Assembly: GCA_016182565.1 (NCBI GenBank)
Contig: JACPGI010000004.1
Location: 174,775-238,774 of the forward strand
DNA: 64,000 bases
Direction: 5' to 3'
Source of the DNA: a candidate division WWE3 bacterium
GTDB taxonomy: Bacteria; Patescibacteriota; WWE3; UBA101185; UBA10185
In this document: positions 9,299-59,037 of the stretch, piece after piece
How the letters are laid out: the number at the start of each line of letters is the position of its first letter
How positions within the stretch are numbered: position 1 is the first letter of the stretch
Program-made: the position numbers and the translations under genes
The notes under the pieces: model-generated
Told to the model about the DNA's origin: nothing
Databases searched by the model: none
The model's input: only the letters and a program-made list of their open reading frames with translations

Positions 9299-9547
9299 CT
9301 AACTTCTTAACATTCGACCAATATATATCACTACTACTGCACCAAATACTGCAACTAAAAAGCTGTATAGGTTAAAGCCTGTAATACCTGTTTGGCCAAC
9401 CAAACTCATTATAAAACCACCAACAATAGCACCAATTACACCCATCACTATATCTAGCATGGTATCTTGATTTGAGTTGGTGTTCATAATTACTGAAGCT
9501 GCCCAACCTGAAATTGCCCCAAAAACTATCCAAAGAAGAATTCCCAT
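9299..9547 (-). CDS. GlsB/YeaQ/YmgE-family small membrane protein
   Basis: 82 aa; GILLWIVFGAISGWAAS...GVIGAIVGGF pattern. Confidence 0.7.
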   Translation of the reverse strand: MGILLWIVFGAISGWAASVIMNTNSNQDTMLDIVMGVIGAIVGGFIMSLVGQTGITGFNLYSFLVAVFGAVVVIYIGRMLRS

Positions 9548-9595
9548 TTTTACTCACATCCTTACATAACTTAGCACTTAACTACTTAGTCAAAC

Positions 9596-9856
9596 TTAAT
9601 TGGCAGGTTTCACATTAACATCAATGCTATTTGGTAACTCTATTTGAGGAGCCGGCATTGTTATTTGTGGGGCTGGAACATTCACTTGTACAGGTCCCAT
9701 CTCTCTTATAATTGGTAAGCCGAAATACAATACCGCTAAAAGGAATAGCACTAAAATCACTACCCCAATCATAAATCCGCTGCCACTATTATCTGCAACT
9801 ACTGCTACCGGTGTTGGGTTTTGTACTGGATTATTTACTACTGTTGTCATATTCAT
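9596..9856 (-). CDS. hypothetical small membrane protein (PAPQI repeats)
   Basis: 86-aa ORF with one TM helix and the repeat VPAPQITMPAPQIELP. Confidence 0.4.
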   Translation of the reverse strand: MNMTTVVNNPVQNPTPVAVVADNSGSGFMIGVVILVLFLLAVLYFGLPIIREMGPVQVNVPAPQITMPAPQIELPNSIDVNVKPAN

Positions 9857-9918
9857 TCACCTACTTTCAAAAATATATTAATACTAAGTAATCGGGTGAT
9901 TTTTGATTTTTCAAAAGA

Positions 9919-10092
9919 TTACCTTGTCAGTTTTGGCTTCTTTATAATTGTGGCTTTGGGTAAATACAATATAAGTGCTTTTTCAACAAGACTTGTTAAA
10001 GAGATATTATCTACGACTGCCTGAGCTCTACCTTGTTTAACAATCGAAGGTTCAAGAAATAATGTGACTCGTTGTTTTGTAGTAGTTGACAT
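9919..10092 (-). CDS. putative ribbon-helix-helix (CopG/Arc-like) DNA-binding protein, 57 aa
   Basis: My own translation gives MSTTTKQRVTLFLEPSIVKQGRAQAVVDNISLTSLVEKALILYLPKATIIKKPKLTR. The strand-helix-helix pattern is RHH-like. It is below the 60-aa cut-off of the ORF track. Confidence 0.35.
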   Translation of the reverse strand: MSTTTKQRVTLFLEPSIVKQGRAQAVVDNISLTSLVEKALILYLPKATIIKKPKLTR

Positions 10093-13762: not shown

Positions 13763-13951
13763 CTGCGATATGATTTTATCAGATATTCGGTTAAGCTGCC
13801 GGATACTGCACAGGCGGAAGATTAAATGCAGTAGCGGGACATTTTAACCATGCTTTATTGTACTTGAAGAGGCAATGTTAAGTATTTGCCATAGTACTAG
13901 TAATGTTGGTAAAATACCGCAGTTACATGCTTATTTTAATCACGCAATCAT

Positions 13952-18424: not shown

Positions 18425-18506
18425 TGGTTAATTATAACATCAGGACTATATCTGCAAGTAAGGGGCTGTCCTCAAGTGTTTCAAACACTATGATAATATA
18501 TTTAAT

Positions 18507-32389: not shown

Positions 32390-32453
32390 AAATCTCCTGT
32401 TAAGTAATTAACTGTGGTAATTATACTAAATATTCGGGTATAAAAGAAATTTA

Positions 32454-32475
32454 CCCCGCTCGAAGATAAGCGGGG
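32454..32475 (-). terminator. hairpin CCCCGCT-N8-AGCGGGG with T-run on minus strand, downstream of 32495..32872
   Basis: 7-bp GC-rich stem; on the minus strand TAAATTTCTTTTAT follows. Confidence 0.5.
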
Positions 32476-32494
32476 CAAAAGTTTGGAAGCAATC

Positions 32495-37186: not shown

Positions 37187-38248
37187 TTAAAATGTCACGT
37201 CATATCTTCTACCATCGCCCAACATAGGAAACTTTTTCAGAAGTGTTGCCCACTCTTGGGGGTTTGCTGTTAGTGCTCTTTTTAAGTCCGCTATAGTACA
37301 CTTATCACCATGTGATAGATATACACGAGGTGATAGCCAAATACGACTTGACCAATTTCTGACTATCTCAGCCAATGTTCCACGCGGATCACTGTAGTCA
37401 CGCACAAGAAGTGCTGGCTTAACTAGCAAACGACTGGAAAGGTAGTATGAAGATTTTCCGGATACTCTACCCCCAAGTTTAAACGTAGCCTCCCATAGAG
37501 TCAGACTATCCCAATTTTCTTTCCAAGGAAAACCGCCCTTACATCCCGAAGGACTTGGACTTCTATCACTTTTCGCTACAATAATCCCATCTTTTTGTCG
37601 ACGAATTGCGTGATACACTGTTTCTTGCATCTGATGACTACAAACCGGACATGGAAACTTCAAAATTACACCCCCATCAGGTACTGCCTTAGTTAGACTT
37701 GATACCCTCATTCCTGCAAACTGGGATTCAAAAATACGAACTTGGTAACCAAAAACTCTGATCAAATTCCCAAAACCCAAATAGGGAATCATCAAAAGCC
37801 ACATACCGATGACCGTAAACCAACGTCCAAGTACAGCCCAGTAAACTCCACTAGATATTGGTGCAAATTTTGGTGATATGCGGTCCATAATCCCAGTCTT
37901 TTGATAAAATCTGAGCCAAAATTTATTTGCACTGGGGGAAATTTTCCAAAGTTTTCCGTATTCGTCATGAGTTCCGCCACAACCAACTTCGGTAACTACT
38001 CGCACTAGTGGGCTTGTATGAATAAGTGCAACAAGAGACACAAATGCTTCTTCGACACGGAAGTTTGGAACAGGTGAGCTTGCATCACTTACCAAAAGCC
38101 TTCCAAACAATGGGATTTTTCGGGCATTTAAACGCTTTCCCCAACGAGCAAGGTACACTGGGACTGCTTCAAGAATACCGCCTGAAACCACCGTAGAGCT
38201 TGTAACTTTTACCATTCTTCTCTCCTTTGTTTGATATAAAAAGCTCAA
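37187..38248 (-). CDS. hypothetical protein, GC-rich relative to surroundings; last gene of PIG-L/GT4 operon
   Basis: The track start is a TTG. A likely internal ATG start MVKVTSS lies about 33 nt downstream. No confident family assignment. Confidence 0.45.
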   Translation of the reverse strand: MSFLYQTKERRMVKVTSSTVVSGGILEAVPVYLARWGKRLNARKIPLFGRLLVSDASSPVPNFRVEEAFVSLVALIHTSPLVRVVTEVGCGGTHDEYGKLWKISPSANKFWLRFYQKTGIMDRISPKFAPISSGVYWAVLGRWFTVIGMWLLMIPYLGFGNLIRVFGYQVRIFESQFAGMRVSSLTKAVPDGGVILKFPCPVCSHQMQETVYHAIRRQKDGIIVAKSDRSPSPSGCKGGFPWKENWDSLTLWEATFKLGGRVSGKSSYYLSSRLLVKPALLVRDYSDPRGTLAEIVRNWSSRIWLSPRVYLSHGDKCTIADLKRALTANPQEWATLLKKFPMLGDGRRYDVTF

Positions 38249-39417
38249 CAGATTTTGTTGTCTTTTTTTAATACACTTTCATAAAATTTACCTAGCTGTT
38301 TAGCTTGGTTTTTAAAAGTGTACTTTCTTTGAACATATTTCATTGCCTCAAGTGCCTTGCGCTTTTCTTTTACTAAGTTTTTAGCACCAAAAGCCCGGTG
38401 TATCTTTTTTGCTAAATCCCGAGCATCTGCCGGCTCTACCAGAATTGCAAATCGGCCCTTATTTGTAGCCTCAGTTAACCCACCCACATTTGTACAGATC
38501 ACTGGAATTCCCATAGCCAACGCTTCAATAACCGCATTTCCCCAAGATTCGGTCAACGATGGGTGTATATAAAAATCAGTTTTTGCTAAGTAGTTACATA
38601 TTAGTGAATTCTCTATATAACCAGTAAACTCAATATTCTCTTCTAACCTGTGATACGTAACTAATCTTTTCATTTCAAGCTCATCTGATCCTCCGCCAAT
38701 TAATCGCACTGAAAAATCCATACCTTGCTTTTTCAAAATTTTTATAGCATCAATCAAATAATTAATCCCTTTCAAAAAAGATATTTCCCCAACATAGGTA
38801 AGATTTACACGCCTCACTTCAGAATAAGCTTCCAAGTTTTTCTGTACAGTTGTGCAGCCGTTTCGAATGACTTGAACTTTTTTACTTATACCGAGCTGTA
38901 GTAAGGTGTCATTTACGCTATTAGATGGGCCTGACAAATACACATTTGGGGCCATTAGATACTGCTTTAGTTCACTAAATTTTCTATCCTTTTCAAGATG
39001 TGTATCAGTGTAAACAGCAGAAAACGGAATGTGATCATACACAGTTCGGAACGCAAAAATGCATGGCTTGTTTGTTTCGACGCAAATTTTTAATCCGATC
39101 ATACTTGCAGGTCGAAACGAAAAAGTGAAATGTATATGTACGATGTCAGCTTCCTCTATAAGTTTCTCCAACTGTGCTACAGTTGTTAAATAGACAAGCT
39201 TTACCTCATCTGTTACCAAAACATTGGAAACATTTTTAACAGTTTCTGATGTAAGCCGACTCGTAGCTATTGTCGTATCATAACCAAGTGTTATTAAGTG
39301 CTTATTCGTCTCAAATGTATTCACCTCTACACCACCACCTTCTTTGGGTGGGTAGTCATGAATATTTAAAATTTTCCTCTTTATTTCGTTTTGCATTTTT
39401 GTTTCACCAAATAACAA
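38245..39417 (-). CDS. GT4-family (GT-B) glycosyltransferase
   Basis: E-x7-E region ESWGNAVIEALAMGIPVI. Confidence 0.8.
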   Translation of the reverse strand: MLFGETKMQNEIKRKILNIHDYPPKEGGGVEVNTFETNKHLITLGYDTTIATSRLTSETVKNVSNVLVTDEVKLVYLTTVAQLEKLIEEADIVHIHFTFSFRPASMIGLKICVETNKPCIFAFRTVYDHIPFSAVYTDTHLEKDRKFSELKQYLMAPNVYLSGPSNSVNDTLLQLGISKKVQVIRNGCTTVQKNLEAYSEVRRVNLTYVGEISFLKGINYLIDAIKILKKQGMDFSVRLIGGGSDELEMKRLVTYHRLEENIEFTGYIENSLICNYLAKTDFYIHPSLTESWGNAVIEALAMGIPVICTNVGGLTEATNKGRFAILVEPADARDLAKKIHRAFGAKNLVKEKRKALEAMKYVQRKYTFKNQAKQLGKFYESVLKKDNKIC

Positions 39418-39439: not shown

Positions 39440-40192
39440 TCAACTTCCAATTTCAACAAACTCATTCAAAATCCGAGCAGCCTCCGGTTTGAACTTAAAC
39501 CATGTTGGGTTCAAAAAATCATAGCTTTCCCCATATTTAAATCCGACCCTCGATCCACGCATCATTGCTTGACCTTCTGCAAAACTGTTTAAGTAATCAT
39601 CAATTCTTCCGTCATAAGCTATTTTTGACGCTTCAATTTTCGCACTGTGAGTACTTGATGTATTAAACGTAATCAAAGGGTTTGGTAATACATTCAAACC
39701 GTCTGATTGCAAAAGTATGCCTGTTTTCAATGGTTCCCCAAGCTCAGGACAAGTTTTTCGGCAAGCAAACTCAAACGCTCTTGCACCAATTAAATGAGAT
39801 ACGGTATGCTCGAAGTGATAATCCTCTTTATTCATCAAAACAGTCACATCAGGTCTTATTGCACGCATTATCTTTGTGACTGCAAAAACCATCTCCTCAT
39901 TTTCAGCAAAAATTCTTTTTTCTGAATCTAAAACTATGGGTTTTTGAGCGCCTAATAACTCGCAGTACAGTGACACTTCTTTTATTCGGTTATGCTTAAT
40001 TTGCTCCGATGTTATTTCCCCAGTACCACTTATTGCGTTCTTTCCCGGTGTACATACAATTTCATGTACAAGCCAACCACTGTCTGCCAATTTTTTCATG
40101 GTACCCCCGACTTCAATGTCATCGTCCGGATGGGCACAAATATATAAAAATGTTCGCGATTTCTGCTTTTTTTCTGTTACTTTTTCTTTCAT
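39440..40192 (-). CDS. PIG-L/LmbE-family deacetylase (second copy in window)
   Basis: CAHPDDDIEVGGT motif. Confidence 0.75.
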   Translation of the reverse strand: MKEKVTEKKQKSRTFLYICAHPDDDIEVGGTMKKLADSGWLVHEIVCTPGKNAISGTGEITSEQIKHNRIKEVSLYCELLGAQKPIVLDSEKRIFAENEEMVFAVTKIMRAIRPDVTVLMNKEDYHFEHTVSHLIGARAFEFACRKTCPELGEPLKTGILLQSDGLNVLPNPLITFNTSSTHSAKIEASKIAYDGRIDDYLNSFAEGQAMMRGSRVGFKYGESYDFLNPTWFKFKPEAARILNEFVEIGS

Positions 40193-40570
40193 AAAAGTCC
40201 TTTCTAACCAAAATTAATAAGAAAAAACAAAAAACCTCCCGATTTTTGGAGGTTTGTAAAAGTTGGGCTTTTTAAATTTTTGCTTTTGTTTTACAAATTA
40301 CCTCCTAACAAGTTTTCCCACAAAATAAATCTTGTATACATATGAACACCTTTAAGTAAGAGGTGTTTTGGGGTGGAGATATTTGAAATGTTTTCTAAAG
40401 CTAAAATTTGCATATTTTTATACATGGCTTTATATCTAAATTTTACGTGGATGTCAAATAATTGTCCAATATTTCAAAACCCCATCGATAACCCTTACAC
40501 CAAACACTTAGGTAGGGTGGCCTAAATACTAGATTCAAAGTATTGTAAGTACAGGCCGGCAACTAAACTC

Positions 40571-40599
40571 TTGACAGTTAACATAGTCTTGGGTATGAT
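40571..40599 (+). promoter_or_regulatory. near-consensus sigma70 promoter TTGACA-N17-TATGAT
   Basis: TTGACA at 40571-40576 and TATGAT at 40594-40599, with a 17-nt spacer. Confidence 0.55.
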
Positions 40600-40634
40600 G
40601 CCTAGACTCTCATTAATTTATTAGTGGGAATAGA

Positions 40635-40665
40635 AATAACTCCGCAAGGAGTTATTTCGTTTTCT
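40635..40665 (+). terminator. hairpin AATAACTCC-GCAA-GGAGTTATT + TCGTTTTCT about 30 nt downstream of predicted TSS
   Basis: 9-bp perfect stem, a GNRA tetraloop and a U-rich tail. Confidence 0.5.
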
Positions 40666-40826
40666 ACAAGAAAACTCCTCAACTAACAAATAATACTTTG
40701 GTTTAAATAAATTACCCACAAAACTATAACTACAGTGTAATGTTGAAATGTTTGATAAAATGAAGCTAGAAACAGAACATTTGACGTAATTTGGGGCACC
40801 TCAAAGTCTACATGTCTAAAAACCAA

Positions 40827-40901
40827 GCCGGAATAGCTCAATGGTAGAGCAATTGCATCGTAAGCAATAGGTTGTGGGTTCGATTCCCACCTCCGGCTCC
40901 A
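40827..40901 (+). tRNA. tRNA-Thr (CGT)
   Basis: Cloverleaf folded by hand; anticodon loop AUCGUAA; one A-C mismatch at the base of the acceptor stem; CCA encoded. Confidence 0.75.
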
Positions 40902-40929
40902 ATAATTCTATGGTAAAATTTCAACAATA

Positions 40930-41682
40930 ATGAAACGCAACACTTTTCAACAAAACAAAACAAAAAGCAATATAAAAAATGAAAGTCTTACTGAAGATGA
41001 GCTTGTTGTAAAACTTAAAAAGAACTTATCCATATTTCTTATTATTTTGGCTGTTTTAGTTGTAGCATTTGGTTTTTTTGGACCAAAGGTGGGATCACTT
41101 TTTTTTATCTTTTCTAAACATAGAAATGATAAAGAACTTGGTGATATTGTTCCTCCTGCCACGCCAATATTTTCCCAAATTCCCGAAGCCACAAACAAAA
41201 ACACAATCACATTTAACGGCGTTACTGAACCAGATGTTGCTGTCTCAATTTTTGTAAATGGTCCTGAAAGACAAAAAACAACAACTGACAAAGATGGGTC
41301 ATTTACTTTTGCAGATATAAAACTAGACTTGGGACAAAATATCATATTTGCAAAGGCTAAAGATAACTCCGGCAACGAGAGTGATAAATCTAAAATTTAT
41401 TATGTAGTGTTTGATGAAAAAAAACCTGAAATAAAAATAAATGAACCAAAAGAAGGCTCTGTTGTAAAAAATCTAAACAAAAGAGTATTAGTAAAAGGGG
41501 AAATCAACGAAACCGCTGAAGTAAAAGTAAATGGATTAAATGCATTAGTCAAATCTGACAATACTTTTGAGATTGTGCTTGGAGTAGATAGCGGTGAAGT
41601 AGAAATAAAAATACAGGCAATTGATGCCGCTGGAAATAAAGGTGAGAAAACAATTAAGGTTACTTATCAAAAGTCTTCTTAG
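40930..41682 (+). CDS. membrane-anchored bacterial Ig-like domain protein
   Basis: TM helix followed by two roughly 80-aa beta-rich repeats (VNGPERQ..., VKVNGLNA...). Confidence 0.5.
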   Translation: MKRNTFQQNKTKSNIKNESLTEDELVVKLKKNLSIFLIILAVLVVAFGFFGPKVGSLFFIFSKHRNDKELGDIVPPATPIFSQIPEATNKNTITFNGVTEPDVAVSIFVNGPERQKTTTDKDGSFTFADIKLDLGQNIIFAKAKDNSGNESDKSKIYYVVFDEKKPEIKINEPKEGSVVKNLNKRVLVKGEINETAEVKVNGLNALVKSDNTFEIVLGVDSGEVEIKIQAIDAAGNKGEKTIKVTYQKSS

Positions 41683-45393: not shown

Positions 45394-45427
45394 ATATTAC
45401 AATCATATCATCTGCTAAAATGAGTAA

Positions 45428-58976: not shown

Positions 58977-59037
58977 GTTAAAAAAATACGCTACACAAAT
59001 AAACTTGCATAACGCTTCCTTGTCTGTCCGTTAAATT

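Follow-up and report, generated by a model that had tools for sequence, protein, structure and literature searches.

A candidate ribosome-mediated attenuator of a PIG-L operon and a divergent promoter–hairpin cassette in an intergenic spacer of a WWE3 bacterium

The trp, his, leu, thr and pheA leaders of Escherichia coli and Salmonella are leader-peptide attenuators of amino-acid operons, in which RNA segments pair as 1:2, 2:3 or 3:4. Other attenuators with an upstream open reading frame (uORF) respond to antibiotics or to ribosome stalling—for example, the erm and ABC-F leaders found by Term-seq—and in the pyrBI attenuator, a leader open reading frame (ORF) of 44 codons runs through the terminator. 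The leaders of polysaccharide operons may also be acted on by NusG paralogues, as for RfaH/ops and LoaP. To our knowledge, gene regulation is very poorly characterised in the candidate phyla radiation (CPR, Patescibacteria), whose members are uncultured and bear reduced genomes with few recognisable regulators, and a full-text literature search returned no paper joining CPR, leader peptides and attenuation. Here, we describe a spacer within 64,000 nucleotides of DNA from a candidate division WWE3 bacterium (positions 174,775 to 238,774 of contig JACPGI010000004.1, assembly GCA_016182565.1; the window in the following). The spacer separates an operon starting with a PIG-L/LmbE-family deacetylase gene from a locus of tRNA-Thr(CGT) and an Ig-like protein gene, and bears a candidate attenuator of the PIG-L operon.

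The spacer probably acts as a divergent control region, with two back-to-back transcription units that would each start from a near-consensus sigma-70 promoter. To the left, a ribosome-mediated attenuator would control the operon of PIG-L, a GT4 glycosyltransferase and a protein without family assignment; to the right, a promoter termed P1 and a GCAA-capped hairpin would form a lineage-specific cassette. We give this reading a probability of about 0.55, and, of all features of the spacer, its leader-ORF attenuator—which is conserved—appears to have the best support. Only two sites in the 64 kb, both strands included, match the sigma-70 consensus at 11 or more of its 12 positions; the spacer holds both of them, in divergent orientation. 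A preliminary description, made from the sequence, had proposed a small RNA or an attenuator in front of tRNA-Thr and the Ig-like gene. What it observed is largely right in detail, and its interpretation is partly supported: the promoter and the hairpin are outliers and form a minimal promoter–terminator cassette, but this cassette bears neither an Rfam match nor conservation. It overlooked a separate minus-strand unit in the left third of the spacer, in which a promoter leads into a short ORF, followed by an antiterminator/terminator switch and PIG-L. The statement that nothing in the spacer is explained by protein-coding features does not hold either, as a conserved ORF of 44 codons fills 40291-40425 on the minus strand.

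This leader ORF carries no Shine–Dalgarno sequence and starts 3–14 nt past the -10 element of its promoter, leaving almost no 5' leader (Table 1). It ends 35 nt before an intrinsic terminator (dG -11.1, z -3.2), and the 30 nt between the terminator end and the PIG-L ATG are too short for a recognisable promoter. The terminator explains a hairpin that had been noted just upstream of the PIG-L start. It is indeed present at 40232-40255, with 8 bp and a loop of 8 nt; of the T-runs ascribed to both strands, only the one directly 3' of the stem on the minus strand is found (TTTGTTTTTT), and folded in the plus-strand sense the hairpin is no better than shuffles (z = -1.0). Segment 2 of the predicted switch comprises the final four codons of the ORF (GGA GGU AAU UUG), its stop at 40291-40293 and 3 nt further.

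In the proposed mechanism, the leftward transcript would start almost directly with the leader ORF. Segment 2—holding the last codons and the stop—would pair with either segment 1, which lies further up in the ORF, or segment 3, and segment 3 would otherwise build the intrinsic terminator before PIG-L together with segment 4. A ribosome at the stop codon would cover segment 2, such that the terminator forms and transcription ends, whereas a ribosome lagging or stalled within the ORF would leave segment 2 free for the antiterminator and allow read-through into PIG-L. The existence of the transcripts, the translation of the leader ORF and the direction of regulation are what we infer from the DNA.

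Conservation was assessed in loci whose PIG-L shares 77% identity with that of the window (L004, Logan assembly; L005, JGI metagenome), 65% (L006, ENA assembly), 62% (L003, Saccharibacteria genome), 48% (L008, Logan assembly) and 43% (L013, Logan assembly); L001 and L002 do not differ from the window and are uninformative. The PIG-L of the window itself matches a protein of a candidate division WWE3 bacterium at 100% identity. A scan of genome contigs with PIG-L yielded one locus, L003, and two metagenome scans—with PIG-L peptides and with a tRNA-Thr pattern—no further relatives. An ORF and a terminator precede the PIG-L operon in all six loci with a PIG-L identity of at least 48% and upstream DNA available (the window, L004, L005, L006, L003 and L008), and this unit is absent from L013. 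The six ORFs comprise 32–45 codons and start 3–18 nt past a -10 element. L004, L005, L006 and L003 display the same order of a promoter with TTGACA and/or a TG-extended -10, an ORF of 38–45 codons, a terminator and PIG-L, and in the first three of these, reading by eye places a perfect TTGACA -35 and a TG-extended -10 at the equivalent position. For L008, a unit with a 32-codon ORF precedes the 347-aa operon partner, which in turn precedes PIG-L. Terminators equivalent to that of the window are found in L003, L004, L005, L006 and L008. The probability of such an open frame under shuffling is 0.02–0.2 per locus, with a product of 5.6e-7 over five quasi-independent loci, and the other two frames bear 0–6 stops each. 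Between L004 and L005, the leader ORF differs by an in-frame indel of 12 nt. The ORF of the window and those of L004, L005 and L006 share the ending GGA-GGU-NNN-NNN-stop.

The second line of evidence comes from alternative pairings in silico, which—like the sequence features and their conservation—can be observed directly. The 2:3 duplexes have energies of -14 to -20 kcal/mol with P ≤0.032 against shuffles in five of five loci tested; for the window, the values are -14.6 kcal/mol and P = 0.002. The 1:2 duplex reaches P 0.002–0.046 in L004, L005, L006 and L003, thus in four of the five. Folding of the RNA between a point 15 nt ahead of the stop and the end of the terminator 5' arm yields, in five loci, a helix of -12 to -19 kcal/mol, as stable as the terminators themselves (-10 to -16 kcal/mol). 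The best upstream partner of the terminator 5' arm is the stretch 11–19 nt before the stop codon in 5/6 loci: this pairing of ORF and terminator arm occurs in the window and four relatives, and L008 folds differently. If the transcript is cut before segment 4, the minimum-energy fold is the antiterminator in the window, L005, L006 and L003, and an analogous alternative helix in L008; if the translated part is masked, the terminator alone remains. The extensions beside the GGAGGU/ACCUCC core vary and yet stay complementary (UUGUAAAA/UUUUACAA in the window, UCUUG/CAAGA in L006, GUUA/UAAC in L005), and in L003 the core itself reads GGGGGC/GCCUCC, and the terminator has changed to match. The arrangement GGAGGU ... 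CCUCC ... GGAGG has no other occurrence in the window or the loci. Two further ideas were rejected. The positions of the 1:2 helix at which L004 and L005 differ sit in an internal loop, so there is no compensatory change, and a prfB-like +1 frameshift at the Shine–Dalgarno-like GGAGGU before the stop is not indicated, since the +1 frames, read by eye, end within a few codons.

Table 1 Features of the spacer and its flanking genes (window coordinates; roles of RNA elements are predicted)
Feature	Position	Strand	Remark
Spacer	40193-40929		between PIG-L (minus) and Ig-like gene (plus); the two flanking genes are divergent
Minus-strand promoter, TTGACA-17-TATAAA	40429-40457	-	11/12 consensus
Alternative overlapping promoter, TGGACA-17-TAAAAT	40440-40468	-	
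Leader ORF, 44 codons + TAA (MYKNMQILALENISNISTPKHLLLKGVHMYTRFILWENLLGGNL)	40291-40425	-	second in-frame ATG at 40413
Segment 1 (CCAAAACACCUCUUAC)	40356-40371	-	candidate partner of segment 2 (anti-antiterminator); weak in the window
Segment 2 (AGGAGGUAAUUUGUAAAAC)	40288-40306	-	5' strand of the predicted antiterminator
Segment 3 (CUUUUACAAACCUCC)	40248-40262	-	3' strand of the predicted antiterminator; also 5' arm of the terminator
Intrinsic terminator: AAACCUCC, 8-nt loop, GGGAGGUUU (40255-40232), then UUUGUUUUUU (40231-40222)	40222-40255	-	
PIG-L/LmbE-family deacetylase	39440-40192	-	first structural gene of the operon
GT4 glycosyltransferase	38245-39417	-	after PIG-L
342-aa protein, no family	37187-38215	-	after GT4
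P1, TTGACA-17-TATGAT	40571-40599	+	expected start ~40604-40606
Perfect 11-bp hairpin, GCAA loop (40633-40658), GUUUUCU tail	40633-40665	+	candidate terminator of a ~60-nt P1 transcript
Second small hairpin, GUUUUCU-ACA-AGAAAAC	40659-40675	+	takes up the U-tail of the first hairpin
P2, extended -10 (TGATAAAAT)	40753-40761	+	66 nt upstream of tRNA-Thr
tRNA-Thr(CGT)	40827-40901	+	CCA end encoded
P3, extended -10 (TGGTAAAAT)	40911-40919	+	10 nt upstream of the Ig-like ATG; implies almost no 5' leader
Ig-like gene (Big_13, Glucodextran_B)	40930-41682	+	

A conserved frame might also simply mark a small-protein gene, either at the head of the operon or separate from it, that is followed by a plain, partly leaky terminator and lacks any ribosome-dependent switch. 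This would fit the loosely conserved motif and the hydrophobic C-terminal half seen in L003, L004 and L005. However, the leader peptides are only 23–37% identical to that of the window, compared with 62–77% for the adjoining PIG-L, and the window peptide is not hydrophobic. A nucleotide motif, ACACCU, is kept in different reading frames (read by eye), and in five loci the stop codon lies within a helix with the terminator arm that bears locus-specific complementary extensions. Moreover, the nucleotide identity between L004 and L005 exceeds what coding requires. Their leader ORFs share 16 identical codons in a row (48 nt; L004 3877-3924, L005 263-310); their PIG-L genes are only 78% identical in nucleotides, use different codons for 45% of the conserved residues and share no run of identical codons longer than 8. 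This suggests a constraint at the RNA level on top of the reading frame, and we regard a mere small-protein gene as unlikely. No Pfam family matched the leader peptides, and a profile search with five of them in a protein database returned only the peptide of L005 itself. Beside the identical stretch of 48 nt, a codon change from R to W keeps a predicted GGUCGU hairpin via G-U pairs.

The leader might also be a metabolite-binding riboswitch in which the ORF is incidental. The leaders of L004 and L005 are more conserved than the adjoining coding DNA and fold as a three-way junction closed by the 1:2 helix (z -3 to -5). Against this, the frame is open in all loci, and the ORF occupies nearly the whole leader. 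Only in the pairing segments can the window, L006 and L003 leaders be aligned with those of L004 and L005, and no conserved unpaired core nucleotides are common to them; neither is there an Rfam match. A riboswitch is hence a very improbable explanation.

Compared with the amino-acid operon attenuators, the leader of the window displays the same building plan: a strong promoter closely followed by a short ORF, four segments whose 1:2, 2:3 and 3:4 pairings exclude one another (here in silico), an intrinsic terminator made of 3:4 just before the first structural gene, and a stop codon placed such that the terminating ribosome would mask segment 2. It differs in that it bears no codon run for a single amino acid, precedes a deacetylase and a glycosyltransferase instead of amino-acid biosynthesis genes, carries neither a Shine–Dalgarno sequence nor much of a 5' untranslated region, places its stop codon inside the antiterminator strand itself and resides in a CPR bacterium. 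The Rfam model Phe_leader scores only 26.9 bits, short of its cutoff of 55; this match is to the opposite strand and stems from the terminator. With pyrBI, erm and ABC-F leaders it would have in common that read-through is set by the position of the ribosome relative to the RNA polymerase and not by a codon run, and the size of the ORF is similar to the 44 codons of pyrBI. On the contrary, the ORF of the window stops 35 nt short of the terminator instead of crossing it, an explicit antiterminator is present, and the downstream genes are neither pyrimidine nor resistance genes. An intrinsic terminator in the 5' leader of a glycan-related operon—beside Wzy and flippase genes—is reminiscent of RfaH/ops and LoaP leaders, but the conserved ORF and the antiterminator with its embedded stop codon do not belong to those systems.

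On the plus strand, P1 lies where the preliminary description had placed it and matches the consensus at 11 of 12 positions. The GCAA hairpin follows 27 nt past the expected transcription start; its perfect stem comprises 11 bp instead of the 9 bp described before, and makes it the longest perfect hairpin in the window (dG -15.6 kcal/mol, z = -7.9 against shuffles). The U-rich tail, GTTTTCT, is present as described: with 5 U in 8, GUUUUCUA passes a simple terminator scan; 4 of the 11 stem pairs are G-C, and the tail can also pair into the hairpin at 40659-40675. The element occurs once in the window and is no repeated element. The cassette would most likely give an RNA of ~60 nt with some read-through, and a discrete RNA of this kind is a plausible candidate. 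It resembles generic bacterial small RNA genes by its near-consensus promoter, stable stem-loop and U-rich tail within ~60 nt, and differs from them by lacking a family match and conservation and by its short, interrupted tail.

Would this cassette be a stand-alone gene for a trans-acting small RNA? In favor of it, the strongest hairpin of the window with a U-rich tail follows a promoter of 11/12 at a short distance, no start codon lies 6–15 nt past the -10 of P1—unlike at the near-leaderless mRNA promoters of this genome—and the downstream tRNA and Ig-like gene bear own conserved promoters, which makes a stand-alone P1 transcript more plausible than a tRNA leader. On the other hand, an Rfam scan of the whole window and the relatives returned only tRNAs and no small RNA family at the gathering threshold. 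Sequence homologous to the cassette is absent from the rest of the window and from L009, L010 and L015, the three loci that keep tRNA-Thr and the Ig-like gene together. The U-tract is just GUUUUCU and pairs into the second hairpin, and the putative RNA is not significantly complementary to the leader next to it (P 0.05–0.10). We therefore consider a trans-acting small RNA possible, though somewhat short of probable. The best matches of a permissive Rfam scan of the spacer stay far below threshold (29.5 bits against 64, 26.9 bits against 55), and the sub-threshold Phe_leader and SSRC34 matches are driven by the terminator. Pairing in trans was likewise not significant for nearby ribosome-binding sites, and a 12-nt complement with one mismatch between 40624-40635 and the 3' half of the tRNA-Thr T-arm (40879-40890) is to be expected about once by chance in this region, by estimate.

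Alternatively, P1 could be a distal promoter of tRNA-Thr—which is confirmed at the position described—and possibly of the Ig-like gene, with the hairpins serving as leader attenuator, 5' stabiliser or processing site and no discrete small RNA being made. P1 faces the tRNA with no gene in between, the tail would be a weak terminator, and a 20-codon ORF with a GTG start at 40624-40686 (read by eye) spans both hairpins, so its translation could in principle melt them. But three other tRNAs of the window have a promoter-like -10 ending 21–37 nt upstream, compared with 228 nt for P1. Furthermore, P2 and P3 are conserved in L009, and P1 is not. In L009, TGTTAAAAT is located 84 nt upstream of an identical tRNA and TGATAAAAT 9 nt before the Ig-like start codon, and the motif TGNTAAAAT occurs in exactly these two places of the locus, before the tRNA and before the Ig-like start, as in the window. 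As tRNA-Thr and the Ig-like gene each bear an extended -10 promoter of their own, whose position is kept in L009, neither needs P1; P1 and the hairpin hence appear as an additional, lineage-specific cassette. The spacers upstream of the relatives' tRNA measure only 199 nt in L009, 58 nt in L010 and 112 nt in L015 (Ig-like identity to the window 74%, 66% and 57%). A distal promoter thus seems rather unlikely.

The missing counterpart in the relatives raises a further alternative, namely that the cassette of P1 and hairpin has no function and was left behind at a junction where a rearrangement joined the PIG-L operon to the tRNA-Thr/Ig-like locus. The two loci are in fact not adjacent in relatives: a cupredoxin-like gene lies upstream of the L004/L005 leader promoter, and a membrane-protein gene upstream of the L009 tRNA. 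The stretch 40458-40750 is an orphan without homologue, and 40458-40826 as a whole has no counterpart in L009, L010 and L015; neither blastn nor tblastx matches it to any of the loci or to other parts of the window. The same searches disclosed no pseudogene or mobile-element remnant. A perfect stem of 11 bp and a promoter of 11/12 should decay fast without selection, and this would be the longest gap within 64 kb of a compact genome. A relic is therefore quite improbable.

Several observations weigh against the divergent control region with its leftward attenuator. In the window, the 1:2 duplex (-12.0 kcal/mol, P = 0.10) is not significant. Only 3 nt separate the best -10 element from the first ATG of the leader ORF, making its true start codon uncertain. 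The geometry of L008 differs. With L004 and L005 being close, the effectively independent leader sequences number only five, and as the helices differ in register between loci, they give no column-wise covariation statistic. No 'regulatory' codon run is shared among the leader peptides—only the window bears Leu-Leu-Leu—which places the leader outside the amino-acid-sensing class. A part of the peptide, K-x-x-H-[FM]-[YR] followed by a hydrophobic tail, seems conserved, such that the ORF could encode a functional small protein instead of or besides a leader peptide. As for the rightward cassette, the U-tract of the P1 hairpin is short, interrupted and absorbable into the second hairpin, and nothing like P1 and its hairpin is present in L009, L010 and L015 despite their conserved tRNA-Thr/Ig-like synteny.

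One may tentatively go a step further. WWE3 and at least one member of the Saccharibacteria might share an undescribed module, in which a near-leaderless uORF with its stop codon in the antiterminator senses ribosome progress—perhaps by a nascent-peptide stall at K-x-x-H-[FM]-[YR]—and switches on an operon for transfer and de-N-acetylation of N-acetylglucosamine (GlcNAc), paired here with a divergent orphan RNA of ~60 nt from the one other consensus promoter; we hold this extended proposal to be doubtful. If the attenuator is real, CPR organisms use classic cis-acting sensing by RNA and ribosome, and the leader is a compact, testable regulatory part. The operon of PIG-L, GT4 and the third protein would then be conditionally expressed, which bears on the cell-surface biology of these episymbionts. 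Should the P1 hairpin RNA exist, it would be among the few candidate small RNAs in CPR/Patescibacteria. If instead the ORF is just a small-protein gene and P1 a relic, the region is ordinary.

As to the operon, PIG-A/PIG-L, MshA/MshB and BshA/BshB are established pairs for GlcNAc transfer and subsequent de-N-acetylation. The BshB/MshB and BshA/MshA models match the PIG-L and GT4 proteins only below their cutoffs; by analogy, the pairing suggests a module that would add GlcNAc and then de-N-acetylate it. The operon adjoins Wzy and flippase genes. Its third member, a protein of 342–353 aa (37187-38248 on the minus strand of the window), invariably accompanies PIG-L, in most cases along with GT4 (L004, L005, L008 and L013). 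It has no match in Pfam, NCBIfam or PDB, the only PDB hit being at E = 0.028 and 16 bits, and a GC content of 41–47%, compared with 35% for the window. In L003, a Saccharibacteria metagenome-assembled genome (CAZXUJ010000001.1, 3780-3975), a small ORF, a terminator, PIG-L and GT4 follow one another in a different CPR phylum, and the module shared with the window is either ancient or horizontally transferred.

On the other side of the spacer, the order of tRNA-Thr(CGT), Ig-like gene and a convergent Wzy_C ligase gene is kept among WWE3 relatives at 57–74% protein identity. An extra small gene is inserted between tRNA and Ig-like gene in two of them, encoding 74 aa in L010 and a NUDIX protein in L015. 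Sites of the type TGNTAWAAT are not enriched in the window (11 found, 15.6 expected), and 5/11 end 6–10 nt before protein-gene starts: 1837-1845, 13773-13781 and 18431-18439 on the minus strand and 40911-40919 and 45413-45421 on the plus strand. In this WWE3 genome, mRNAs with a minimal 5' leader or none at all thus appear to be common, which fits a leader ORF without a Shine–Dalgarno sequence.

The spacer is bounded as first described, by PIG-L on the minus and the Ig-like gene on the plus strand, and is the longest in the window provided that the small ORFs within 9299-10092 count as genes. A long imperfect inverted repeat reported at 40350-40490 shrinks to arms of 11 nt (40382-40392 and 40468-40478). 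As an extended structure it is at background level—1 of 37 comparable pairs in an AT-rich stretch—and no predicted transcript holds both arms, as they flank the minus-strand promoter. Another inverted repeat, AATACT-N8-AGTATT at 40525-40544, is flanked by GGCC...GGCC and lies between the divergent promoters, 27–46 nt ahead of the P1 -35. A regulator might bind there, but statistically the repeat is not distinguishable from background. Across the window, counts of simple terminator-like and sigma-70-like sites are not above shuffle expectation, and few genes carry a convincing intrinsic terminator, among them the genes with ends near 32450-32479 and 58988-59015.

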